A stretch of DNA of 64,000 nt, from IMG/VR virus record IMGVR_UViG_3300032294_002926; one strand, 5' to 3'. Position numbers and translations under genes: made by a program. How positions within the stretch are numbered: the stretch's first letter is position 1; every line of letters begins with the position of its first letter. The DNA comes from a virus. Taxonomy: Duplodnaviria; Heunggongvirae; Uroviricota; Caudoviricetes. Below are positions 1 through 12,867 of the stretch, piece after piece. The notes under the pieces are model-generated. The model was not told where the DNA came from. It did not search any database and saw only the letters and a program-made list of their open reading frames with translations.

Positions 1-1
1 T

Positions 2-496
2 GCTCACGCTGGACATTTCAAAGCACTTGTGAATGAACTTCATTTGAAAAAATCTTTTAAACCAGATGTTCTGTTTATTGATTATTTAAATATCTGTTCA
101 TCAAGTCGATTCAAATCAAATTCCAACGTAAATTCATATTCTTATGTAAAATCGATTACAGAAGAAGTGAGAGGAATGGTAGTAGAACTTGATATTCCTC
201 TGATTACAGCTACTCAAACGACTAGATGTTTAGGATTAGATTCTGAAGTAATAAAAAAAGATGATGGAAAAATTAAAATAAAAGATATTAAAGTAGGTGA
301 TGAAATTTTATCTCATTCAGAATTTGTGACAGTTGAACATGTTTATCCCATAGAAACACAAAATGTTTATGAAATTACTACAAAATCAGGAAAAAAAATT
401 ATTTGTTCAGATAAACATATTTTCCCAACTGTTGAAGGTGAAAAGAGTATTAGTTCTGGATTATCTGAAGGTGATAGTTTATTTGTGATAAAATAA
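2..496 (+). CDS. gp41: DnaB-family replicative helicase (T4 gp41-like) N-extein, 5'-truncated by the window edge, fused in frame to an N-terminal split-intein half (IntN ~nt 227-493) and then a stop codon
   Basis: The frame of ORF 29..496 stays open back to nt 2. DnaB motifs DVLFIDYLNI and ELDIPLITATQTTR are followed by a Cys-initiated Hint block CLGLDSEV...KKIICSDKHIFPT of ~89 aa and then TAA. Length and sequence closely match the N-half of the gp41-1 split intein. Confidence 0.8.
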   Translation, partial: AHAGHFKALVNELHLKKSFKPDVLFIDYLNICSSSRFKSNSNVNSYSYVKSITEEVRGMVVELDIPLITATQTTRCLGLDSEVIKKDDGKIKIKDIKVGDEILSHSEFVTVEHVYPIETQNVYEITTKSGKKIICSDKHIFPTVEGEKSISSGLSEGDSLFVIK

Positions 497-549
497 TAAA
501 CAGAAACGCAAATTAAAAAATAATAAATAATTGTGTCGCTGTTAAAAAA

Positions 550-1191
550 ATGGAAGTTAACTACGTTTTAAATAAAATAAAAATTCTAACAGGTTTGGAA
601 TGTTTGGATTTTTATAAAAAAGATATTGAAAAATTAGTCGATTGTCACAATAAAGGAGAGTTTTCTCTTTATACTAAAATGAAAATATTATCAAAACAAA
701 TTTCTATAGGATTACCTGATCCTTATGATAGAATAATTAAATTGAAAAAATATGGAAGAGATTCTTCTTCTATAGAAGCATGTAAACTTAGATATGGAGA
801 TATTGAAGGAGTTAGAGTTTATAATGAAAAGATATTTAAATCTAAACAAACATTAGAAAAATACATTGAAAAATATGGAGAAATTGATGGAAAGATAAAA
901 TATAAAGAATACTGCAAGTCAAAGTCAATGTCTTTGGAAATGTGTATAAAAAGACATGGTGAAACTGAAGGTAAAATAGTATATGAAAAATTTTGGAAAA
1001 ATACTGGATTTGGAACTTCTAAGAGAGCATTTAAAAAAAGGCATGGAAATGACTGGGGAAAATATTACAATCAATTTGTAATAAATCAAGGAAAAAATAA
1101 TACTTTGGATGGAAAAATATTAAAATATGGAGAAGAATTAGGTAAGAAAAAATATAAAGAATTAAATGAAAAAAAAAACAAAATCATCTAA
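550..1191 (+). CDS. Hypothetical protein built from ~25-aa tandem modules (consensus ..YGExEGKIKYxEY..); probably the N-terminal part of a frameshifted free-standing endonuclease gene
   Basis: The repeated YG..EGK..KY.EY motif occurs at least 5 times and continues into the next ORF (1166..1882) in a different frame. The two ORFs overlap at an A10 homopolymer (nt ~1173-1182). Confidence 0.45.
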   Translation: MEVNYVLNKIKILTGLECLDFYKKDIEKLVDCHNKGEFSLYTKMKILSKQISIGLPDPYDRIIKLKKYGRDSSSIEACKLRYGDIEGVRVYNEKIFKSKQTLEKYIEKYGEIDGKIKYKEYCKSKSMSLEMCIKRHGETEGKIVYEKFWKNTGFGTSKRAFKKRHGNDWGKYYNQFVINQGKNNTLDGKILKYGEELGKKKYKELNEKKNKII

Positions 1192-1882
1192 TAAAGAATA
1201 TTTTATAAAAAAATTATTAGAATCTGGTTTTTCTTTTAATGAAATACAAAATATGATAATCGATAGATGGGACAATACATCTTTGAAATCTTTTATTTCT
1301 AGATATGGAGAATTTGAGGGAAAAATAAAATATGAGGAATATATTAAAAAAATCAGAAAATCAAATCCACTTTGTTTGGAGTATTATGAGGAGAGAAATA
1401 TAAAAGAGGATATTGCTTTTGACATTATTTCTACAATACAATGGCAAAATAATAAAAAAATATCTAGATATTCAAAAGAATCTCTGAAATATTTTGACAA
1501 ATTAAATGAAATATTTCAAAATAGAGGTTATGCATGTCTTTATAAAAAAAATGAACTTGGAATAAAACTTACTAAAAAAGAATATGATTTGTATAAAAAA
1601 AATAGATTTTTTTTCTATGATTTTTTCATTCCGGATATAAATTTAATTATAGAATATCATGGTTTTAGATTTCATGATAATATTGATTATGATTCAACCT
1701 TAAACGTATCTGAAAATGAAATACAAAAAATAGAATACAACAGAGATTTTTATAAAAAATGGATAGCAGAATTTAGAGGATATAAAGTTTTCATTCTTAG
1801 ATCTTGGTTTTTGAATGAAGATTTAAATAGATTATTTGAAGAATTAAATTTTACGGAGGAAGAAAAGTGCAAATTAATCTAG
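1166..1882 (+). CDS. Putative homing endonuclease, Vsr/DUF559-like PD-(D/E)xK nuclease domain, lying between the two split-intein halves
   Basis: C-terminal region FFFYDFFIPDINLIIEYHGFRFHDN...RDFYKKWIAEFRGYKVFILRSW fits the Vsr/DUF559 very-short-patch-repair-like endonuclease fold. Its position between IntN and IntC is the arrangement described for fractured gp41 genes. Confidence 0.5.
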   Translation: MKKKTKSSNKEYFIKKLLESGFSFNEIQNMIIDRWDNTSLKSFISRYGEFEGKIKYEEYIKKIRKSNPLCLEYYEERNIKEDIAFDIISTIQWQNNKKISRYSKESLKYFDKLNEIFQNRGYACLYKKNELGIKLTKKEYDLYKKNRFFFYDFFIPDINLIIEYHGFRFHDNIDYDSTLNVSENEIQKIEYNRDFYKKWIAEFRGYKVFILRSWFLNEDLNRLFEELNFTEEEKCKLI

Positions 1883-2307
1883 ATGAAATTATTTCAATCA
1901 AAAAAATAGGAAAAAAAGAGACTATAGATATTACAGTTTCTGGAGATAATTTATTTTTTGCAAATGATATTTTGACTCATAATAGTGGATTTTCATCTTC
2001 GGATGTTGAGATGACTGATATTTCTGAAAGTTTTGGTACAGCAGCAACTGCTGATCTACTTCTTGCTCTTATTACTACAGAAGAATTAGATAATCTTGGT
2101 CAAATTATGATTAAACAACTGAAAAATAGATATGCAGATAAATCAATTAATAAACGTTTTGTCGTAGGAATTGATCGTTCAAAAATGAGACTTTTTGATG
2201 TTGAGCAATCTGCTCAAAAAGATTTAGTTGACTCTGGACAAGAAGAGGAGTATAATACTTCCGAAACAAACAAACCTAAAAAAATATTTGAGGCATTTAA
2301 ATTCTGA
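1867..2307 (+). CDS. gp41: C-terminal split-intein half (IntC, nt 1867-1983, ~39 aa) fused to the gp41 helicase C-extein (nt 1984-2307)
   Basis: Intein blocks F/G: ETIDITVSGDNLFFANDILTHN followed by a +1 Ser. The extein SGFSSSDVEMTDISESFGTAATADLLLALITTEE matches the DnaB helicase C-terminus (SDLRESGSIEQDAD region). Confidence 0.8.
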   Translation: MQINLDEIISIKKIGKKETIDITVSGDNLFFANDILTHNSGFSSSDVEMTDISESFGTAATADLLLALITTEELDNLGQIMIKQLKNRYADKSINKRFVVGIDRSKMRLFDVEQSAQKDLVDSGQEEEYNTSETNKPKKIFEAFKF

Positions 2308-2723
2308 TGGATTCTAAAACTACAATTGAAATAACTGATTATAAAAATTTTGTAAATACTATAACTTCAAAACCGTCTACAAATCTCGACTGTTTAATCT
2401 CAAGATTGAATGAACTTCAAGACCAAGGCGTTAATGTTCCTCAACTTATGACTAGCGCATATGGCATTTCGTCTGAATCTGGTGAATTTACAGAATTGGT
2501 AAAAAAAATAATTTTTCAAGGGAAACCTTATACTGAAGACAATGTAAGACATCTTAAAATTGAATTATCCGATATTCTTTTTTATTTTCAATTAGCTTGT
2601 ATTGCTTTAGATACAACAATTGAAGAAATTATGCAAATTAATTTTGAAAAATTATCTTCTCGTTATCCAGAAGGTACCTTTACTATCAATCGTTCTGAAA
2701 ATCGTAGAGAAGGTGATCTATAA
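2307..2723 (+). CDS. mazG: MazG-like nucleoside triphosphate pyrophosphohydrolase
   Basis: ELSDILFYFQLACIALDTTIEEIMQINFEKL is the typical MazG EExxE/D-helix motif. MazG is a common cyanophage gene. Confidence 0.7.
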   Translation: MDSKTTIEITDYKNFVNTITSKPSTNLDCLISRLNELQDQGVNVPQLMTSAYGISSESGEFTELVKKIIFQGKPYTEDNVRHLKIELSDILFYFQLACIALDTTIEEIMQINFEKLSSRYPEGTFTINRSENRREGDL

Positions 2724-2753
2724 ACATAAATGATCGAATAAATACCATTAAAA

Positions 2754-3155
2754 ATGTCTTTAACCAGTAAAAATAAGGGAAGATCTCTTTCAAGAAATCA
2801 TTTTAATTTTATACTTAAAAGATTTCTTCTCTTTCTGAAAAGAGAACTTCGTATAGCATATGATATACCAATTATTCTTATTGACGACTCGGAGTTCTCT
2901 AAAAAAATAAAAGCATTTGGTGAACTCTCTAATAATATCATATATGTAAGTATTATTAATAGACATCCAGTGGATATTTTAAGAACTATTGCACATGAGT
3001 GTATACATTATAAACAGAATATCGAAGGTAAAAAAGGTAGTTCTCGTCCTGGTAGTTTAATAGAGAATCAAGCAAACGCAAAGGCTGGAGAATTGATAAG
3101 AAAATATGGAGATATTCATCCAGAATTATTTGATTTAACTTCAATTAAATTATAA
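2754..3155 (+). CDS. Hypothetical protein
   Basis: ORF with start codon, compact spacing to neighbours, HExxH-like IAHECIHY. Confidence 0.4.
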   Translation: MSLTSKNKGRSLSRNHFNFILKRFLLFLKRELRIAYDIPIILIDDSEFSKKIKAFGELSNNIIYVSIINRHPVDILRTIAHECIHYKQNIEGKKGSSRPGSLIENQANAKAGELIRKYGDIHPELFDLTSIKL

Positions 3156-3188
3156 TTCTAAATAATTTAGATTTAAATTTTTGAATAT

Positions 3189-4340
3189 ATGCCTCTTGAG
3201 TATAACAAAGGTAACATTTCTGAAGCAGTCTTAGCGGCTGCAATTGGTGCAAGATTTAAAAAAAGATTCCAACAACCTGATTTTAAAAAATCATCTGAAT
3301 CTATTAAAATTGGAATGCTCCCTCAAATTGGTCTAAATGATGTTAAATTAGTTTTACGTGATATAGTCAGAAATCAAGGGAGTTCATATACAGTTTATGA
3401 TTTTGACAGAAAGGAAAAAAAGATTGCTAATATTACAGATAACATAAATTTAAATATTTCTATTCCAGCAAGAGATTTTGAATTTCTTAGATTGGAATCT
3501 AACTGGTCAAAGATCAGTGAAATATTTTCATCTGCATTGAATAAGATTAATAGCGATGGTAAAATTAAATCACAAGCATATGGACTCGCTGTAAATAAAA
3601 AATATGATACAATTAATATTGTGGCACAAGGAACTCAAGGCACAAAAATTGATATAGATGTTTCATTTTTTAGTAGAGATCCATCAAAAAAAATAAGTTC
3701 CGCCTTAAGAGGTAGTCAAATTTCACTTAAATATGATTCTCCTCAATTTGCTCAATCTGTAGGAATAGAGTTTGAAAATTTTGGAAAAATTTTTGATGAA
3801 TTGGGATTAAATGATTATAAACAATATTCAGAATTGTTTTTAAATGAAGTTATGAAAGTTTATCCTGACATTTTAGGTAAAAGATTTTCCGATACGGAAC
3901 AAATAAAATCTTCAAATGAAGTTAAAGCATTGAGAAAAGTTGCAAAAGTAATTTTTGGTAAAATTAATTCTGAATTAAATGTAAAGTTAAAAACTCCAGA
4001 ATTTAAATCCGTTCTTGCTCAATATTGTATAAATAAATCAATTTCAAATCAAAGTGGTGTTGAACTAGTACAATTTACAAAAAAAGGTACATCAGTTACT
4101 CAAAGTTTTAAACCAACTTTTACTGAAAACTTAATTAATTCTGATTTAAAATCTACTTTTATAGATTCTATAGCAGATCCAAAAGTAATCATTCATTTGT
4201 CTGGAAAATCTTCAACAAAACCAGATATGTTAATTCAATTTAGATATAGAACTGATGCATCACAAAAAAATAAAGCAGGGTTTCATAGACTTGTTATGAG
4301 AACTTATGTGGAATCTGGGGATCTTATATATGAACTATAA
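3189..4340 (+). CDS. Hypothetical protein (383 aa)
   Basis: Long ORF with no recognisable motif. Confidence 0.45.
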   Translation: MPLEYNKGNISEAVLAAAIGARFKKRFQQPDFKKSSESIKIGMLPQIGLNDVKLVLRDIVRNQGSSYTVYDFDRKEKKIANITDNINLNISIPARDFEFLRLESNWSKISEIFSSALNKINSDGKIKSQAYGLAVNKKYDTINIVAQGTQGTKIDIDVSFFSRDPSKKISSALRGSQISLKYDSPQFAQSVGIEFENFGKIFDELGLNDYKQYSELFLNEVMKVYPDILGKRFSDTEQIKSSNEVKALRKVAKVIFGKINSELNVKLKTPEFKSVLAQYCINKSISNQSGVELVQFTKKGTSVTQSFKPTFTENLINSDLKSTFIDSIADPKVIIHLSGKSSTKPDMLIQFRYRTDASQKNKAGFHRLVMRTYVESGDLIYEL

Positions 4341-4393
4341 TTCATAAATAGTTGAACGATTTATTATAACTAATAATAATCATTAAATAAATA

Positions 4394-5713
4394 ATGAAAA
4401 CTTTTTTAAACTTCTTATCGGAAAATTCTGCCGCTCAGCAAGCAAAACGTTTTGGTCTTGTTGGTGATGGTCATGGTGGATGGTATGATAGACAAGGTGA
4501 ATTTGTGGCAAAGACTGAAGGTGGTGAAATAAAATTTTACAATAAGCGTCAAATTATTGGTAGTAAAGATCCAAAACAAACAGAAAAAGAAAAAGATATT
4601 CCATCTTCTCAATATAATGATCCAGCATTAATGCAACAAAATTCTGCCCCTCAAGTAGAACCGTCTCCACAGCAACCAGAATCTCCAGATTCACAGCAAA
4701 CAGTATCACAATTTTTACCTATATCAAAAACAAAAGGAACTCTTACAGTTGCTTTTGGTAGATTCAATCCTCCTACTATAGGGCATGAAGAACTTATGAA
4801 TGTTGCCGCAGCAGCAGCATCCAAAGATAAGAATGGTCAATATTTAATTTTCCCATCAAGGAGTCATGATAAGAAAAAAAATCCACTAGATCCTGAAACA
4901 AAAATTGCATTTATGCAAAAATTTTATCCAGATCATTCGGACAATATTGTAAATGATCCCAATATCAGAACAATATTTGATGTCTTAACTATTGCTCATA
5001 ACAATGGTTATTCTGGGGTTAGAATTGTTAGTGGGTCGGATCGAGTTAAAGAATTTGAAAAACTTTCCAATCAATATAATGGTCAACTTTATCAATTTGA
5101 CACTATTGAAGTTATTTCATCTGGAGAAAGAGATCCGGATTCAAAAGGTGTGGAAGGTATGTCTGCATCAAGAATGAGACTAGCAGCATCTGAAGGTGAT
5201 TTCAGAACTTTTAAATCTGGACTACCACAAAATATTAAAACATCAGATGCAAAAGAATTATTTTATAGTTTACGGGGTGCCATGAATATGGCAGAAAATC
5301 ATGATACTTGGGAAATTGCACCAAAGTTTGATTATCAGAATCTTCGTGAACAATATGTTCAAGAAAGTATTTTTAAAATTGGTGAAATGGTTGAAAATTT
5401 AAATACTGGAATGATTGGGAAAATTATTCGCAGAGGTACAAATTACTTGATTTGTGTGACTGAATCTGGACAAATGTTTAAATCCTGGATTAAAGATATT
5501 TCAGAATATACTGAAGTGAAAATGAATAGAAAAATGAGACTTCCTGGGAAACCAAATACTCTTACAGGTACTTCTGGTGCATTTAAACATTTTTCAGATA
5601 TGACTCCTAGTGCAATTGAAGTAGGTAAGAAAAATCTTCAATTTGGTGGCAAACCTTATTTGGGTTATAATGTAAAAGAATTCATAAATAAATATAGAAA
5701 AAATAAAAAATAA
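4394..5713 (+). CDS. Protein with a cytidylyl/adenylyl-transferase-like (HxGH) nucleotidyltransferase domain, preceded by a Q/P-rich linker
   Basis: [18 protein letters not shown] matches the (G)xFxPxHxGH signature of class I nucleotidyltransferases. Confidence 0.5.
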
Positions 5714-5723
5714 AAAGTTTCTT

Positions 5724-7169
5724 ATGAAAAACCACATTGTAGAGGAACTTCCTCAGAGACAAGTTCCACAAGGAAGTATGCCTCGACAAGAAGTTGATCG
5801 AAAAAGAATGAGTGGTAAAACTCCAGAACAAAAAGTAAGGCAAGCAGTATATGATATTCGTTATCGTGCGAGACGTGAAGATATATCTCTTAGTCAAGCA
5901 TATGCACAATATATGCAAAATAGTAATATGAGTCCAAAAGAGAAGACTTTAGTAAGAGAAAAAATCTTTGGTAAAAATGGTGTTCAATCTGAAGATTATG
6001 GATTGAAATCTTTAGTTACTTCTAGTATTGCCAATACTTTATATAAAGTATTTGTTGAAAATGAACAATTAGATGAACCAATTTCTTTGACTTATTTGGA
6101 GGATATGTCGATTCTTGATGATCGTAAATATAAAGTTAAAGTTGTTGATAGAAATGGTAGAAGTTACGTAAGATATGCTACTCGTGAAAAAATTAGAACT
6201 CTTCGTAGTAATCCAAATATCGAGTCTGTAGAAATGGTTAGATATGGTGAACCTTATGAAGGTGAAAGAAAGAGAGGTGAATTAACCGCTGCTGCAACTA
6301 GAGGGGATAAACTTGATCCAGTTGGCAAAGAAGATTCTGATGTAAATAATGATGGTAAAGTTAATTCAACAGATAAGTATTTAAAACATCGTAGAGATGT
6401 CCGTGGGTCTGAAATATCAAAAAGAAAAAAAGTTAAAGAAGAATTTTTACATGAAATTAAGAGAGGCGTCGTAGACGGTTCTAGAAAAAAAATTGATGTT
6501 ATGAAAGGAAAGAACAAGGTAATTGTTGGACCTGAAATTCCTGGAAGTTCTAAAAATTACGGTTCTAGTCTTCAAATGTCTCATTATATTCCTGACGGAA
6601 ATTACGTAAATGAATCTGAAGGATATTCTGAGTTTCTTCGTATGATTAATGAGAAAAAATTAACAAAAAAAGAAAAACAAAAGAAAGAAGAAATTGTAAA
6701 AAGTTTGAAACCACAATATGGTAAAACTTCAAAAACTTATGCCATTGCAACTTCAGTGGCAAAAAGAGTTGCAGAAAATTGTGAAAATAGAGATGATAAT
6801 AAAAAGGAAGATCCAAGAAGTATTCCCACTAAAGTTAATGTAGTTAAAAACAAATTAAGATCAGTGGGACTCAAAATGTCTCATGATCTTGAAGGAAATC
6901 AAATTGATGAATTAAATCGTTTAGAACGCGAACAAGGAAAAGAAAGTGGTGGTAGTGTAAATCCTGCTATTCGATCTGTGAAAAAATCTATTCGTTCTAT
7001 TGAAGGAAAACCCGAAGGTCAACGTAAAAAGGTACGCGGACAAAAACCACCTAGAGCAGGTGAATATGGATCAGAAAGATTATCTCCAAGTCAAATTGTA
7101 GATAGAAGAAAAAGAGATAAAAAATCTGCAGATTCAATGTATCGTGCGAGATCTGGAGAGTCTGATTAA
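5724..7169 (+). CDS. Hypothetical highly charged/basic protein (481 aa)
   Basis: Long ORF, K/R/E-rich, no motif recognised. Confidence 0.45.
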
Positions 7170-7395
7170 TCTAAATACTTATGAATCCATAAATAAGTAA
7201 AAATATGGTATCCTCTACACTTTTTTTAGTTGCAGTTAATAACTTATCTGCGGCAAATTTACAATTAATTTTAGCTATTCTTTTAGCTATTTCGGAAGCC
7301 TTAGGTGCTGACCCTAGAGTAAAAGCAAACGGAATTCTTTCTTTTATTTTAATTCAAGTAAGAGCATTGATTCGTAACCAAAAAAAATAATAAAA

Positions 7396-7419
7396 AGAAT
7401 ATTTAGCATATTCTTTTTA
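7396..7419 (+). terminator. Rho-independent terminator hairpin (agaatat-ttagc-atattct + T-run)
   Basis: Perfect 7-bp stem followed by TTTTT, immediately upstream of a TATAAATA box. Confidence 0.5.
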
Positions 7420-7425
7420 TAAATA
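7418..7425 (+). promoter_or_regulatory. T4-type late promoter box TATAAATA upstream of the 7456 gene
   Basis: Exact TATAAATA ~30 nt upstream of the ATG. Confidence 0.45.
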
Positions 7426-7455
7426 TTTTCAGAAAAGAATTATTAGGTAAAACAC

Positions 7456-8028
7456 ATGTCTCTATGGGGCAAGAAAGATTCAGTTTATTCAGCTGGAACA
7501 ATATCCGTTAATTTATCAACCAATACTGTTACTGGTGCATTAGGTGTAGTTACTTTTACGACTGCAGGAATTGCTACAGGAGACGTAATTACCGTTGGCA
7601 CTGGTGCAACTTATGGTTATGCTGTAGTTACGGGATTTACTTCCACCACGATTTCTATTGCAAATACAGAAAATTTTGTTTCTGGGTTAACGACAGTACC
7701 ATCTGGAACTTCATATAATATTTCTGAAGAACCACTTTATACACTTAAAGATTCTGTATATAGAGCGCCGGAACTAAAAACGACTGGTTTCTCTACAAAT
7801 AGATTTTTCACAGGTGTATTTGGTGTAGATACTACAGAAACTGGAATTGCTCGTACAACAACAGTTGGGGGTAAAGCGGGTGCATATGGAATTGCTCATG
7901 CTGGATGGGTAGGTGTAACTACTTATATTGACACTCATGGCAACTTTAGAGTTAAATCAGAGACATTAGTTGCTGGAAGTAGTATTACTAATGATGCAAA
8001 TGATAATAGTCAATTCCCCAACAGTTAA
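7456..8028 (+). CDS. Hypothetical Gly/Thr/Val-rich protein, possibly structural
   Basis: ORF preceded by a late-promoter box; beta-rich low-complexity composition. Confidence 0.4.
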   Translation: MSLWGKKDSVYSAGTISVNLSTNTVTGALGVVTFTTAGIATGDVITVGTGATYGYAVVTGFTSTTISIANTENFVSGLTTVPSGTSYNISEEPLYTLKDSVYRAPELKTTGFSTNRFFTGVFGVDTTETGIARTTTVGGKAGAYGIAHAGWVGVTTYIDTHGNFRVKSETLVAGSSITNDANDNSQFPNS

Positions 8029-8040
8029 AGACAATTAAAT

Positions 8041-8412
8041 ATGAAATTTAATGAATTGAATGAAAATAATTATTTGTTATTTGCTATAAAATTTTATAAT
8101 AATCCTCAGGCACTGACTTATGAAGATTTTGAGGCGGATTTAAAAAGAATACGTTATATTAAAAGATTATTAAAAAAATATAAAAATAAAGGTGAACTTA
8201 AAACTCATTTAATTCTGAATCACTTAGTTATACTTTTTAATGTTTTTAATGATGCTGCGGTACCTTTATTATTTTATAATTTAGATAAAGATCTTTGGCC
8301 ATGTATTAAAAGTTTTTTAATTTTTATCAATCGTTTCCCAGAATATCCAAAAACTAAAATTCATTCAATAGAAGAAGATATGAACTGTTTGGCTGAATTG
8401 CAAAAAATATAA
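8041..8412 (+). CDS. Hypothetical protein
   Basis: ORF tightly packed with its neighbours. Confidence 0.4.
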   Translation: MKFNELNENNYLLFAIKFYNNPQALTYEDFEADLKRIRYIKRLLKKYKNKGELKTHLILNHLVILFNVFNDAAVPLLFYNLDKDLWPCIKSFLIFINRFPEYPKTKIHSIEEDMNCLAELQKI

Positions 8413-9163: not shown

Positions 9164-10135
9164 ATGGATTTTATTGATTCGAAATACATTGGAATAATCT
9201 CACATAATCTTAAAAACTTTAAGAAAGTTAATAACAATACTTATAACTTTAGATGCTGTTTCTGCGGTGATTCTCAAAGAAATAAATCTAAAGCAAGAGG
9301 TTATTTCTATACAGTTAAAAATAATACCAACTTTAAATGCCACAATTGTGGCATGAGTTTATCTTTGAATAATTTTATAAAAACTTTAGATGAATCTATC
9401 CATAAGCAATATGTTTTAGATAAATTTAAAGAAGGGCATTCTGGAAAAAATTTCCCAACACCTGCACCAAAACTTATTTTTAAGAAACCATCTTTTCGGG
9501 AAAAAATAGATTTACCTAAAGCATCTGCAAATGAGTATGCCAAAAATTATTTACTAAAGAGAAAAATAAATCCTGATAATTTTTATTATGCTGAAAAGTT
9601 TAAAGAATGGGTAAACACAAAAAAATCTACTTTTTCTGAAATTAAATATGAAGAATCCAGAATTATAATTCCTTTATATAATTCTAAAAGTGAACTTATA
9701 GGGTTTCAAGGAAGAAGCATTCAATATTCATCAAATAAATATATCACAGTTATGCTTTCTGAAAATGATCCCAAAATATATGGACTTCATAAAGTGGATT
9801 TCGAAAAACCGATATACATCGTTGAAGGTCCCTTTGATTCCGAATTCGTCGAAAACTCCATTGCTATGTGTGGGTCTGATATTGATATTGGGGCGTTTGG
9901 CTGGAGCAATTATATTTGGGTATTTGATAACGAACCTCGCAATCGAGAAATCGTCTCAAAATTATCAAAAACCATTGATAGAGGGGATAAAGTAGTAATT
10001 TGGCCGTCCAACATTCAGCAAAAAGACATCAACGATATTGCATTAAGTGGACTTAATGTTATGAATGTGTTAAAATCAAACATCTATTCTGGTTTAGAAG
10101 CAAAAATCAAATTTAACAATTGGAAAAAAGTATGA
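9164..10135 (+). CDS. DNA primase (T4 gp61-like; Zn-ribbon + Toprim)
   Basis: CCFCGDS...CHNCG zinc ribbon; Toprim motifs IYIVEGPFDS and VFDNEP. Confidence 0.75.
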   Translation: MDFIDSKYIGIISHNLKNFKKVNNNTYNFRCCFCGDSQRNKSKARGYFYTVKNNTNFKCHNCGMSLSLNNFIKTLDESIHKQYVLDKFKEGHSGKNFPTPAPKLIFKKPSFREKIDLPKASANEYAKNYLLKRKINPDNFYYAEKFKEWVNTKKSTFSEIKYEESRIIIPLYNSKSELIGFQGRSIQYSSNKYITVMLSENDPKIYGLHKVDFEKPIYIVEGPFDSEFVENSIAMCGSDIDIGAFGWSNYIWVFDNEPRNREIVSKLSKTIDRGDKVVIWPSNIQQKDINDIALSGLNVMNVLKSNIYSGLEAKIKFNNWKKV

Positions 10136-12867
10136 GTAATAGTACAAGTGTAGTCAAAAGAAACGGGTCTATTGAATATCTTGATTTGAATAAACTTCAT
10201 CTCATGGTTGACGAGGCTTGTAAAGACTTGTCAGGAGTATCTGCAAGTCAAGTCGAAATGACTTCTGGTATTCAATTTTATGATGGAATCACAACAGCAG
10301 AAATTCAAGAAATTTTAATTAAATCTGCATCGGATTTAATTAGTTTAGATCATCCAAATTATCAGTATGTTGCATCTCGTCTATTATTGTTTTCAATTCG
10401 TAAAAGTCTTTATGGTGGACGAATTGATCTTCCGAGTTTATATGACCATATTAAAAAAGTAATTGATTTGGGATTTTATGATTCAAATATTTTGAATCTT
10501 TATACAGAAGAAGAATTTAATGAAATTAATTCTTATATTGATCATGATAGAGATTTCTTGTTCACTTATGCTGGTCTTCGTGAAATTGTAGACAAATATC
10601 TTGTTCAAGATAGAAGTAAAAAACAAGTATTTGAAACTCCTCAATACATGTACATGCTTGTTGCTTTAATTACATTTTCATCTTATCCAAAAGAATCTAG
10701 ATTAAATTATGTGAAGCGTTATTATGATGCTATCAGTAAACATAAAATTAATATTCCTACGCCGATTATGGCAGGAGTAAGAACGAATAAAAAACAATAT
10801 GCAAGTTGCACTCTTCTAGATTGTGGCGATTCTATGGAATCAATTATTGCAACGACAGGAGCATTAATGCGATATGTTGCAGCTAAATCCGGAATTGGAT
10901 TAAATGTAGGAAGAATTCGGGGATTAGGTTCTAAAATTCGTAATGGAGAAGTAGTTCATACCGGAATTGTTCCATTTATTAAAGCATTTGAAGGTGTTTT
11001 GAATTCATGTTGTGTAACTCCAGATACTTGGGTTGAGATATTAGAACCATTGCAAGATCTGAGCACGAAAATGACAAAAACTAAAAAAATTAAAATTAAA
11101 GACCTCCAGATTGGAGAAAAGATTAAGACTAAGGATGAAAATGGAAATATTGTTTTTAAAAGGGTGACTGATAAATTCAATACTATAGTATCTTCAGAGA
11201 ATCAAGTACTTTTAAGATTTACTAATGGGTCAAAATTAAATTGTTCTACTAATCATCCTATTTTGATTCTTGGTGATGGTGGCGAGTTTATAGAGAAATT
11301 GCCAATGGATATTTCTGATTCTGATAAAATTATCACAGAATCGGGTGTTACTAATTTATTATCTATAGATAACTACCAACAAAACGATATCAATTATATA
11401 GATATAACAGTAGAAGATTGCCATACATTCTTTGCTTCAGATACTGAATTCGAAGAAATGATTTTAACTCATAACAGTCAAGGAGGTCTTCGTAAAGGAT
11501 CTGCAACCTTGTTTTTTCCCATTTGGCATCAAGAAATCAAAGAATTAATAGTGCTTAAAAATGAAAAAGGAAATGATGAGAATCGTGCTCGTTCTTTAGA
11601 TTATGCCGTGTCCATCTCAAAAATTTTCTATGAGAGATTTATCAACAATGAAGAAATTACTCTCTTCTCTCCACATGACGTTCTTGGTCTGTATGATGCT
11701 TTTGGTACTGATAGATTTGACGAGTTATATGTTCATTATGAACGAGATGAGTCTATTCCAAAGAAAACTGTTAATGCTCAGGAACTCATTCTTGAGATTT
11801 TAAATGAAAGAAGTGATACTGGTCGAATTTATATTCTGAATATTGATCATGCAAATAGTCATGGTCCATATACAAAAACGATTCGTATGAGTAATCTTTG
11901 TTTAGAAATTTGTTTGTTGACGGATCCTATTGAACATATTGATGATATAAATGGTGCTATTGCTCTTTGCATTCTTTCTGCATTAAATGCAGGAACTATC
12001 AAGAATGAAAAAGAATTGGAAGAATGTTGTGATCTTTCCGTGAGATCTTTGGATGAATTGATTGACATTCAAGAATATCCAGTAAAAGCAGCTGAAATTG
12101 CAACAAAAAGATATAGACCTCTTGGAATTGGCATCATTGGACTTGCACATTATCTTGCAAAATTAGGATATAATTACGAAGATTCTGATGCATGTAATTC
12201 TGTTCATAGGTTGTCAGAAAGTCTTCAATATTATCTTTTGAAAGCATCAAATCAACTTGCAAAAGAAAAAGGTATTTGCGAAGGTTTCAGTGATACGAAA
12301 TATTCACAAGGAATTCTTCCAATTGATACTTATAAAAAAGATGTTGATGAATTTTGTACAGAACCCTTACAACATGACTGGGAATCTTTGAGAAGAAATA
12401 TTATGGAATATGGTTTGAGGAATACAACTCTCACTGCAGCTATGCCATCAGAGACATCATCAAAAACGTCTAATGCCACTAATGGAATTGAACCTCCAAG
12501 AGGATATCTTTCTGTAAAGAGAAAAATCAAACAAATAGTTCCTCAATATTCAACACTCAAAAATAATTACACACTTCTTTGGGATATGAAGTCAAATGAA
12601 GGATACTTTAATATTGTTGCAGTGATGCAAAAATTCTTCGATCAATCTATTAGTGCGAATTGGAGTTATAATCCAGAAAATTATCCAGATAAAAAAGTAC
12701 CAATGAGTGTTGTCGTGAACGATTTTCTTCAAGCATACAAAAAGGGACATAAGACAGCATACTATATGAATACCTATGATGGTAAGAAAGATGATATGCA
12801 ATTAGATGATTTAATAAACGAAATTTTAGAACAAGGGGAAGAATCCTGTGAATCCTGCAAAATCTGA
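10120..12867 (+). CDS. nrdA: Ribonucleoside-diphosphate reductase alpha subunit (class Ia) carrying an in-frame mini-intein
   Basis: N-terminal ATP-cone; active-site regions QYASCTLLDCGDS, NLCLEICLL and GGLRKGSATLFFPIWH. Over 900 aa because of the intein insertion. Confidence 0.9.
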   Translation: MEKSMSNSTSVVKRNGSIEYLDLNKLHLMVDEACKDLSGVSASQVEMTSGIQFYDGITTAEIQEILIKSASDLISLDHPNYQYVASRLLLFSIRKSLYGGRIDLPSLYDHIKKVIDLGFYDSNILNLYTEEEFNEINSYIDHDRDFLFTYAGLREIVDKYLVQDRSKKQVFETPQYMYMLVALITFSSYPKESRLNYVKRYYDAISKHKINIPTPIMAGVRTNKKQYASCTLLDCGDSMESIIATTGALMRYVAAKSGIGLNVGRIRGLGSKIRNGEVVHTGIVPFIKAFEGVLNSCCVTPDTWVEILEPLQDLSTKMTKTKKIKIKDLQIGEKIKTKDENGNIVFKRVTDKFNTIVSSENQVLLRFTNGSKLNCSTNHPILILGDGGEFIEKLPMDISDSDKIITESGVTNLLSIDNYQQNDINYIDITVEDCHTFFASDTEFEEMILTHNSQGGLRKGSATLFFPIWHQEIKELIVLKNEKGNDENRARSLDYAVSISKIFYERFINNEEITLFSPHDVLGLYDAFGTDRFDELYVHYERDESIPKKTVNAQELILEILNERSDTGRIYILNIDHANSHGPYTKTIRMSNLCLEICLLTDPIEHIDDINGAIALCILSALNAGTIKNEKELEECCDLSVRSLDELIDIQEYPVKAAEIATKRYRPLGIGIIGLAHYLAKLGYNYEDSDACNSVHRLSESLQYYLLKASNQLAKEKGICEGFSDTKYSQGILPIDTYKKDVDEFCTEPLQHDWESLRRNIMEYGLRNTTLTAAMPSETSSKTSNATNGIEPPRGYLSVKRKIKQIVPQYSTLKNNYTLLWDMKSNEGYFNIVAVMQKFFDQSISANWSYNPENYPDKKVPMSVVVNDFLQAYKKGHKTAYYMNTYDGKKDDMQLDDLINEILEQGEESCESCKI
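11011..11475 (+). other. Mini-intein (155 aa, no endonuclease domain) inserted in nrdA between ...LNSC and SQGG...
   Basis: Starts CVTPDTWVEIL (block A) and ends ILTHN with +1 Ser (block G). The insertion sits just before the conserved GG(L/I)RxG extein motif. Confidence 0.75.

Follow-up and report, generated by a model that had tools for sequence, protein, structure and literature searches.

A probable fractured gp41 helicase gene, with a split intein and a frameshifted endonuclease gene, in an uncultured T4-like cyanophage

We analyzed a 64,000-nucleotide stretch of DNA (the window) from the IMG/VR virus record IMGVR_UViG_3300032294_002926, at the start of which the gene for the DnaB-type helicase gp41 is divided into two parts. 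The locus is very probably a fractured gp41/DnaB helicase gene of an uncultured T4-like marine cyanophage, in which an endonuclease gene is lodged between the halves of a split intein of the gp41-1 family. Dassa et al. described such an arrangement in 2009, from ocean metagenomes, as a 'fractured gene' (PMC2677866). Helicase function would depend on protein trans-splicing, a prediction that the sequence of the locus supports. Systems of this kind have been on record since 2009; to them the window copy adds a separate insertion site and an endonuclease gene in decay. The basic arrangement was already known, and the new element is the evidence that the locus was mobile recently.

The helicase would be made as two chains. 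One is a 441-residue chain of N-extein and N-terminal intein half (IntN), and the other is a 146-residue chain that would start at its own GTG codon behind a GGAGGA sequence and that contains the C-terminal intein half (IntC, 39 residues), Ser+1 and 106 further helicase residues. The original prediction of a helicase in two polypeptides, with an IntN of about 89 residues ended by a stop codon and an IntC of about 39 residues followed by Ser+1, proved correct in every position and length. The gp41 start lies 5' of the window, and the full 441-residue N piece is found at 7305 to 8630 of L001, an independent Logan assembly in which position 8135 is base 1 of the window (L numbers designate contigs and P numbers proteins). 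Read in frame 2 from base 2, the N-extein is ...AHAGHFKALVNELHLKK... / ...AHAGHFKALVNELHLKKSFKPDVLFIDYLN...PLITATQTTR, followed by Cys1. The IntC sequence is MQINLDEIISIKKIGKKETIDITVSGDNLFFANDILTHN. Table 1 lists the features of the locus.

Table 1. Features of the gp41 locus in the window, and uninterrupted gp41 alleles in related contigs
Feature	Position	Strand	Remarks
gp41/DnaB N-extein, 3' end	2..226	+	Last 75 of 352 codons; PHROG 19 DnaB-like helicase, E 3.7e-16; Pfam DnaB_C
IntN, 89 residues (CLGLDSEV...SLFVIK)	227..493; TAA 494-496	+	Cys1 at 227-229; block B Ser61-x-x-His64; PDB 6qaz
Spacer between IntN and endonuclease gene, 53 nt	497..549	+	RNA hairpin 499-543
Endonuclease gene, 5' part (ORF1), 213 residues	550..1191	+	Five of six repeats of about 27 residues; PHROG 22677
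A10 homopolymer with +1 frameshift	1169..1178	+	Removing one A restores a 443-residue ORF
Endonuclease gene, 3' part (ORF2), 238 residues	1166..1882	+	Sixth repeat, helical region, C-terminal Vsr-like PD-(D/E)xK domain (about 1523-1879)
Shine-Dalgarno-like GGAGGA	1855..1860	+	6 nt 5' of the GTG of the IntC piece, within the 3' end of the endonuclease gene; read from the sequence
IntC, 39 residues (MQINL...ETIDITVSGDNLFFANDILTHN)	1867..1983	+	GTG start at 1867; block F Asp; block G His-Asn; ILTHN end
gp41 C-extein (Ser+1 GFSSSDV...), 107 residues and stop 2305-2307	1984..2307	+	Ser+1 at 1984-1986; PHROG 19, E 5.5e-20
Empty gp41 alleles (TQSTR SSF, not TQTTR SGF)	L014 2395-3774; L015 2381-3760; L016/L017 10001-11380		

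We propose that the intein halves would associate and trans-splice through Cys1, the Ser-x-x-His of block B, the Asp of block F, the terminal His-Asn and Ser+1. Splicing would join ATQTTR to SGFSSSDV and produce a 459-residue helicase. The first piece would supply its motif H3, and the second its motif H4 and arginine finger. By the motifs of the DnaB family, we take the ATQTTR that ends the N-extein to be motif H3, and the C-extein presumably holds motif H4 and the arginine-finger region (KNRY). Since these motifs are on separate pieces, neither piece alone is expected to be a working helicase.

The fused intein halves matched the structure of the gp41-1 intein (PDB 6qaz) with an E value of 6.2e-29, which argues that the locus is not a chance match. 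The DnaB inteins 4o1r and 1mi8 gave weaker matches, and the Pfam Intein_splicing and Hint matches to IntN fell below the Pfam curated cut-off. Cys1, the block B motif S61-D-K-H64, the block F Asp (in ETIDITV), the terminal His-Asn and Ser+1 all aligned with gp41-1, and the splicing residues were conserved in all of the IntC pieces that we retrieved (about 25). When the window was compared with the contig L008, the ratio of nonsynonymous to synonymous substitution rates (dN/dS) was 0.2 for IntN and 0.06 for IntC.

Splicing in silico of ATQTTR to SGFSSSDV gave a product of 459 residues. In tblastn the product aligned as one piece over 100% of its length with the intact gp41 of Synechococcus phage S-SRM01 (71%) and Prochlorococcus phage P-SSM2 (68%). 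It also matched Pfam DnaB_C (E 2.4e-19) from residue 171 to residue 387, across the 352/353 junction, while the single pieces gave partial matches. Natural uninterrupted alleles of 459 residues (P0132 to P0134), equal in length to the spliced product, were found in the 90%-identity cluster of the N piece. Compared by eye, P0133 appears to differ from the spliced product just at the junction residues, T350S and G354S, and this is consistent with the list of nucleotide mismatches. The predicted ligated product holds the junction peptide ...ATQTTRSGFSSSDVEMTD....

We aligned the window halves globally with the published gp41-1 sequences (PMC7895425). The two inteins were found to be nearly colinear, as had been claimed, with one 1-residue indel, one 2-residue indel and an equal split point, but the identity was just 47% (43% in IntN and 57% in IntC). 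The halves of the homologous inteins have 89 and 39 residues in the window and 88 and 37 residues in gp41-1, and both inteins have the Cys1/Ser+1 pair. The gp41-1 flanks are TRSGY/intein/SSSDV (PMC7895425), and Dassa et al. placed the gp41 break at P-SSM2 position 356 (PMC2677866). In P-SSM2 the local sequence reads T348 Q T T R352 S353 G F355 A356. The insertion in the window is at R352/S353 (TTR/SGFSSSDV), three codons 5' of that of gp41-1 (355/356, TRSGY/SSSDV). As all of the approximately 25 related IntC pieces retrieved read THN/SG..., the R352/S353 site marks a large, separate group. It was reported that the proteins of the gp41-1 to gp41-7 loci are 89 to 100% identical and that allelic split inteins are very similar (PMC2677866). 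Because the insertion site lies three codons upstream and the identity is 47%, the window intein is, as judged from these alignments, a member of the gp41-1 family and not a gp41-1 allele.

In other respects the window resembles the gp41-1 to gp41-7 loci that Dassa et al. reported from GOS metagenomes (PMC2677866). It likewise has a cyanophage-type gp41 in a neighborhood of UvsX, a 2-oxoglutarate (2OG) oxygenase and gp41, and the parts follow in a like order on one strand: N-extein with IntN, a spacer with a hairpin, the endonuclease gene, and an overlapping IntC with C-extein. It differs from gp41-1 in identity, in insertion site and in having a frameshifted endonuclease gene. The charge pattern also appears to be inverted. 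It was proposed that charged strands in gp41-1 form a 'charge zipper' (PMC7895425). In the aligned strand segments, which we picked from the gp41-1 sequence, the sign of the charge is opposite: IETQNVYE (-2) in the window IntN corresponds to KSKKKSYK (+5) in gp41-1, and KKIGKK in the IntC core corresponds to EELDERE. This inverted pattern was present in the window, L008 and L006, and was not present in L010.

A fracture of gp41 at another site was observed in L007 (positions 4888 to 8004; IMG/VR 3300035698_009224). Its insertion lies 14 residues further downstream (...NTAE/C...LTKN/SFGLPATAD), with an intact 375-residue Vsr-like endonuclease ORF (open reading frame). In this intein Lys replaces the penultimate His, and the IntC piece is lengthened considerably at its N terminus. 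The protein P0099 (141 residues; 4 contigs, the longest 21 kb) consists of an IntC, a 15-residue extein (CGQNATDYEINEVSE) and an IntN. Evidently, some phages fracture gp41 at both R352/S353 and the downstream site of the L007 type, and their helicase would then require two trans-splicing reactions, one on either side of a 15-residue fragment.

The order of parts in the window is that of a fractured gene: the N part with IntN, a short spacer, the endonuclease gene, and IntC with the C part, all on one strand. The spacer has 53 nt, as compared with 27 to 51 nt in Dassa et al. (PMC2677866). The hairpin at 499 to 543 has a folding energy of -9.7 kcal/mol and a z score of -4.2, and none of 200 shuffled sequences folded as well. 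At the equivalent position L008 has a perfect 13-bp stem (z score, -7.5), and no hairpin was found in the L010 spacer. Dassa et al. described a hairpin in the 5' untranslated region of the endonuclease gene, often with the late promoter TATAAATA (PMC2677866). The hairpin loop in the window holds AATAATAAATAA/AATAAATA, one mismatch from this T4-type late promoter sequence. An exact TATAAATA was absent from the spacer, and the window as a whole contained six such sites as against 10.8 expected, without enrichment. An overlap of 6 to 69 bp between the endonuclease gene 3' end and IntC is typical of fractured genes (PMC2677866); the overlap in the window is 16 nt (1867-1882), within this range. 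An Rfam scan of positions 1 to 3000, with E values up to 1, returned nothing, which excluded a group I intron or a known riboswitch.

Between the intein halves the original prediction placed two ORFs of a putative nuclease. A nuclease is indeed encoded there, but as one gene for a 443-residue Vsr-like homing endonuclease that carries a +1 frameshift in the A10 run, so that ORF1 and ORF2 share a strand but not a reading frame. For the frameshift-repaired ORF there were about 28 clusters of homologues, each exactly 443 residues long, at 55 to 82% identity and 100% coverage, and its distant relatives are named Vsr or mismatch endonucleases by their sources. Where the window has GAAAAAAAAAAC, the nearest intact copies read GAAAAAAAATC, and in the intact homologues the A run is shorter and broken up (A8-T-C or A7). 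The identical A10 was found in L001 to L003, and the frameshift was present in every copy of the lineage seen so far (9 to 10 contigs).

The N-terminal two-thirds of the endonuclease contains six repeats of about 27 residues (SLxxxIxRYGExEGxxKYxEY), presumed to be the DNA-binding region. The C-terminal domain shows a Vsr-type PD-(D/E)xK nuclease fold, and the AlphaFold2 model of ORF2 was confident, with a predicted local distance difference test (pLDDT) score of 94.8. Among 60 sequences, D152, E163 and H170 (ORF2 numbering) were invariant and D194 was conserved in at least 90%. These residues correspond, by spacing and not by superposition, to D51 of Vsr, the family Glu at the position of Vsr F62, H69 and D97, respectively. 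Pfam assigned no family to either nuclease ORF or to the repaired ORF, and MTES_1575/DUF559 was matched by distant homologues only. In the PDB profile search, 3r3p and Vsr were marginal matches (E 0.016 to 0.04), and an unrelated interferon chain scored equally.

The window endonuclease belongs to the Vsr-like/EDxHD family of homing endonucleases, of which I-Bth0305I is a member (Taylor et al. 2011, PMC3239194; PDB 3r3p). I-Bth0305I and the window endonuclease both have an N-terminal noncatalytic region and a C-terminal Vsr-like nuclease domain, and the window enzyme shares the Asp, Glu, His and Asp of the family. Dassa et al. found enzymes of this family in half of their fractured loci (PMC2677866), and in 12 of their loci such a gene stands free between the halves of a split intein, as it does in the window. 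I-Bth0305I is a 30.9-kDa enzyme with two NUMOD-2 motifs in its N-terminal region, whereas the window endonuclease is much longer, has six RYGExEG repeats in this region and, unlike an intact ORF of the EDxHD family, is broken by the +1 frameshift.

The signs of recent mobility came from gp41 alleles that have no intein. L014 and L015 have an uninterrupted gp41 without the whole element, and their flanks are 99.4% identical to the window (28 mismatches in 4,441 nt for L015). Six of these 28 mismatches fall between -9 and +5 of the insertion point, a span of 15 nt (binomial P, 7e-11). The window reads CAA ACG ACT AGA/AGT GGA, and the empty allele reads CAA TCA ACG AGA AGT TCG (TTR/SG versus STR SS). 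At the insertion point, the empty consensus gp41 is CAAACGACTAGAAGTGGATTT and the L014 variant is CAATCAACGAGAAGTTCGTTT. The same six changes were found in the more distant empty alleles of L016 and L017. The consensus TT(N)R SGF is retained in P-SSM2, in S-SRM01 and in every allele that bears the intein.

We propose that the split intein and the endonuclease gene would travel as one mobile unit into intein-less gp41 alleles of coinfecting phages. Between the window and L008, the synonymous substitution rate (dS) was 0.57 for IntN, 0.46 to 0.64 for the endonuclease gene and 0.55 for IntC, as compared with 3.7 and 2.6 for the exteins. The dS values of the element are alike and far below those of the exteins, which suggests that the composite element moved between phage lineages as a unit. 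The G+C content was 22 to 25% in the element, 28 to 31% in the exteins and 32% in the window. In L006, the same insertion site holds a contiguous mini-intein that is 73% identical. The R352/S353 site was thus seen in four states: empty, contiguous, fractured with an intact endonuclease gene, and fractured with a frameshifted one. These states match steps of the model of Dassa et al. (PMC2677866).

It was conceivable that the stop codon at 494 to 496, or the entire insertion, is a sequencing error or a chimera and that the helicase is in fact continuous, as uninterrupted 459-residue alleles of at least 90% identity occur in related contigs and a mixed population could in principle misassemble. 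However, positions 1 to 5608 of the window are base-for-base identical to the independent assembly L001, so that the stop codon is not an error to be removed by resequencing. The exact N piece, both nuclease ORFs and the C piece were found on 9 to 11 contigs of up to 236 kb, which come from JGI, Logan and ENA. The layout of gp41 N piece (441 to 442 residues), endonuclease (443 to 447 residues) and IntC recurs in the divergent phage contigs L008 to L011 and L018 to L021, and the insertion codes for an intein and an endonuclease, complete and conserved. The identical independent assembly, the 9 to 11 contigs and the layout conserved in divergent phages together exclude an artefact for practical purposes. 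It could also be argued that the intein halves are noncovalent dimerization domains and that the helicase works as two chains without splicing, like the split NrdA of Aeh1, whose parts are brought together by interaction domains. Split phage genes that work without splicing exist (Aeh1 NrdA, PMC3045599; the SbcD-like locus of Dassa et al.). On the other hand, mere association would not need the residues of the splicing chemistry, all of which are kept across homologues down to 47% identity, and the homologue gp41-1 trans-splices efficiently. We consider the noncovalent alternative very unlikely, and trans-splicing is preferred.

How the element moves and what the frameshift means are less certain. 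The endonuclease may target a contiguous intein, as in step II of the model of Dassa et al., and not the empty gp41, in which case the intein and the endonuclease would have separate mobility histories. That model has the endonuclease invade an intein-containing gene (PMC2677866), the contiguous mini-intein of L006 at the same site is the state expected before invasion, and the NrdA intein of the same phage occurs with and without an inserted ORF. Nevertheless, the polymorphism within the lineage is of the whole element versus an empty site in 99.4% identical DNA, and IntN, the endonuclease gene and IntC share a low dS of about 0.5 to 0.6 with L008, which fits one cotransferred unit. An intein-targeted origin of the present distribution is thus unlikely, and movement of the whole element into empty sites is preferred, although in the course of evolution both routes could have been taken.

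As for the frameshift, we somewhat favor the interpretation that it marks the degeneration stage of a homing cycle, in which the element is established in the lineage and the leftover empty alleles have an altered target. The frameshift could instead be regulatory, with polymerase slippage or ribosomal +1 frameshifting on A10 producing a little full-length 443-residue enzyme and limiting its toxicity. In bacteria, transcription tends to slip on runs of at least nine A, and the frameshift sits exactly in the run of 10 A. Both halves of the endonuclease gene are still open without a second lesion, both have a dN/dS of 0.15 to 0.2 against intact homologues, so that the lesion must be recent or tolerated, and the A10 allele is the sole allele seen in the lineage (9 to 10 contigs). 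However, all of the 28 or so close homologue clusters have an uninterrupted 443-residue ORF and a shorter, interrupted A run; dependence on slippage is therefore not a trait of the family. A single recent lesion also has the look of early pseudogenization, with the dN/dS reflecting the history before the frameshift. A regulatory frameshift thus seems less likely, and degeneration remains our preferred interpretation. A more speculative interpretation is that a homing cycle is under way in wild cyanophages. In such a cycle the element would have entered recently, the six-substitution cluster in L014 to L017 would be a selected cleavage-resistant target, and the endonuclease would be decaying or throttled to the level of slippage because no cleavable targets are left. 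The intein, with its opposite charge pattern and its different insertion site, would then be a relative of gp41-1, the fastest split intein known, that is orthogonal to it by nature.

Several observations weigh against the interpretation of a mobile element with a splicing intein. The window intein has only 47% identity to the tested gp41-1 and differs in its flanks (-1 Arg, +2 Gly, +3 Phe), and ligation of the window helicase, on which the choice between spliced and two-chain forms turns, is deduced from sequence. The six-substitution cluster could be either a short coconversion tract or a cleavage-resistant target. The element appears to have been gained recently, with the direction of gain or loss between the window and L014 being inferred. 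As the endonuclease ORF is broken, present-day homing by the window copy is doubtful; its dN/dS of 0.15 to 0.2 reflects past constraint only and says nothing on the time since the frameshift. In addition, a scan of positions 1 to 2800 for sigma-70 promoters and terminators found no excess over shuffled controls.

The locus was seen in uncultured metagenome contigs. A megablast search with positions 1 to 6000 of the window found no match among GenBank phages. Searched by tblastn against 50,697 GenBank phage records (INPHARED), the fused intein matched only unrelated inteins (PaV-LD DnaB, 34%; a Shigella phage fragment), and the repaired endonuclease gave one match, at 18% coverage. Neither search returned a GenBank phage record with the intein-endonuclease layout, and the same arrangement in phage genomes, which the original prediction had proposed to look for, was thus not found in this collection. 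The novelty in the accompanying claim of a genomic context for an intein previously seen only in metagenomic reads was overstated: the arrangement, including the UvsX-2OG-gp41 neighborhood, was described in 2009 (PMC2677866), many long public metagenome contigs carry it, and the window itself is found on metagenome-assembled contigs only. Within the window there were no other copies of the gp41 intein or of the endonuclease gene, and the sequence of the window's gp41 intein was not found printed in the literature searched.

The gp41-7 locus (Dassa et al. 2009) and the classic split DnaE inteins represent later stages of the proposed pathway, in which the endonuclease gene has been lost and the halves are adjacent or unlinked. 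In the window, gp41 still has its endonuclease gene, and decay is less advanced, with one frameshift. The nrdA gene of Aeh1 (Crona et al., PMC3045599; cited in Dassa et al. 2009) is a comparable case. There the free-standing endonuclease gene mobE interrupts an essential replication gene of the phage and, as in the window, the start of the downstream part overlaps and a hairpin lies upstream. Aeh1 has no intein at this gene and its fragments assemble noncovalently, while the window has a complete split intein.

Among split inteins gp41-1 is one of the fastest, and protein engineering makes wide use of it. With 47% identity, a junction of Arg at -1 and Ser-Gly-Phe at +1 to +3, and an apparently inverted charge pattern, the window intein is a candidate orthogonal partner. 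Close relatives in public assemblies show several stages of the pathway of Dassa et al. at one gp41 site, and the endonuclease-lost stage is seen in the neighboring polymerase gene. The homing cycle, coconversion tracts and possible target-site resistance thereby become testable on natural sequences.

The host of the locus is a T4-like, Kyanoviridae-like cyanophage with a G+C content of 32% in the window. The assignment to T4-like cyanophages follows from the neighboring genes, which encode gp45, RegA, Hsp20, gp43, UvsX, the 2OG oxygenase, gp41, MazG, a cytidylyltransferase, a DnaG-like primase and NrdA/B.

Four replication and recombination genes of this one phage (gp43, uvsX, gp41 and nrdA) carry inteins. 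The window nrdA (10120-12867) has a contiguous 155-residue mini-intein at 11011 to 11475 (VLNSC/CVTPDTW...EEMILTHN/SQGG). In L001 (18266-20441), otherwise nearly identical to the window, the NrdA intein is broken 11 residues after Cys1 by a 366-residue ORF, so that IntN is very short (CVTPDTWVEILDESDD*) and the IntC, which begins with MAKTKKIKIKDLQ, is long. The presence or absence of this ORF is a polymorphism that creates an atypically split intein. By eye the 366-residue ORF looks GIY-YIG-like, but it had no Pfam match.

At 2080 to 5098 of L001, gp43 is split into pieces of 679 and 312 residues by a split intein (...MDTDS/VLGG...; ...FFANDICVHN/SCFLNF) with a 40-nt gap and no endonuclease gene; in L016 and L017 gp43 is uninterrupted (830 residues). 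UvsX is in two pieces at 5109 to 6749 of L001. Its 88-residue N piece ends in STGK/CARGSEKIIIYCDEETADKIKKMI* (a 24-residue IntN), and after a gap of 171 nt there is a 400-residue piece with a long IntC (...YIANSKSGIYHHN/TFFALAV). The UvsX intein is contiguous in L006, and L016 has none. The contig L018 belongs to a less closely related phage whose gp41 is fractured in the same way; its uvsX (1-1520) is broken in two by a 290-residue ORF with an I-TevI DNA-binding domain.

The window also encodes a 439-residue cytidylyltransferase-like protein (4394-5713), of which residues 314 to 372 match phrog_4808, annotated as a ribonucleotide reductase alpha subunit (E 7e-15). This stretch of about 60 residues may be a shared small domain.

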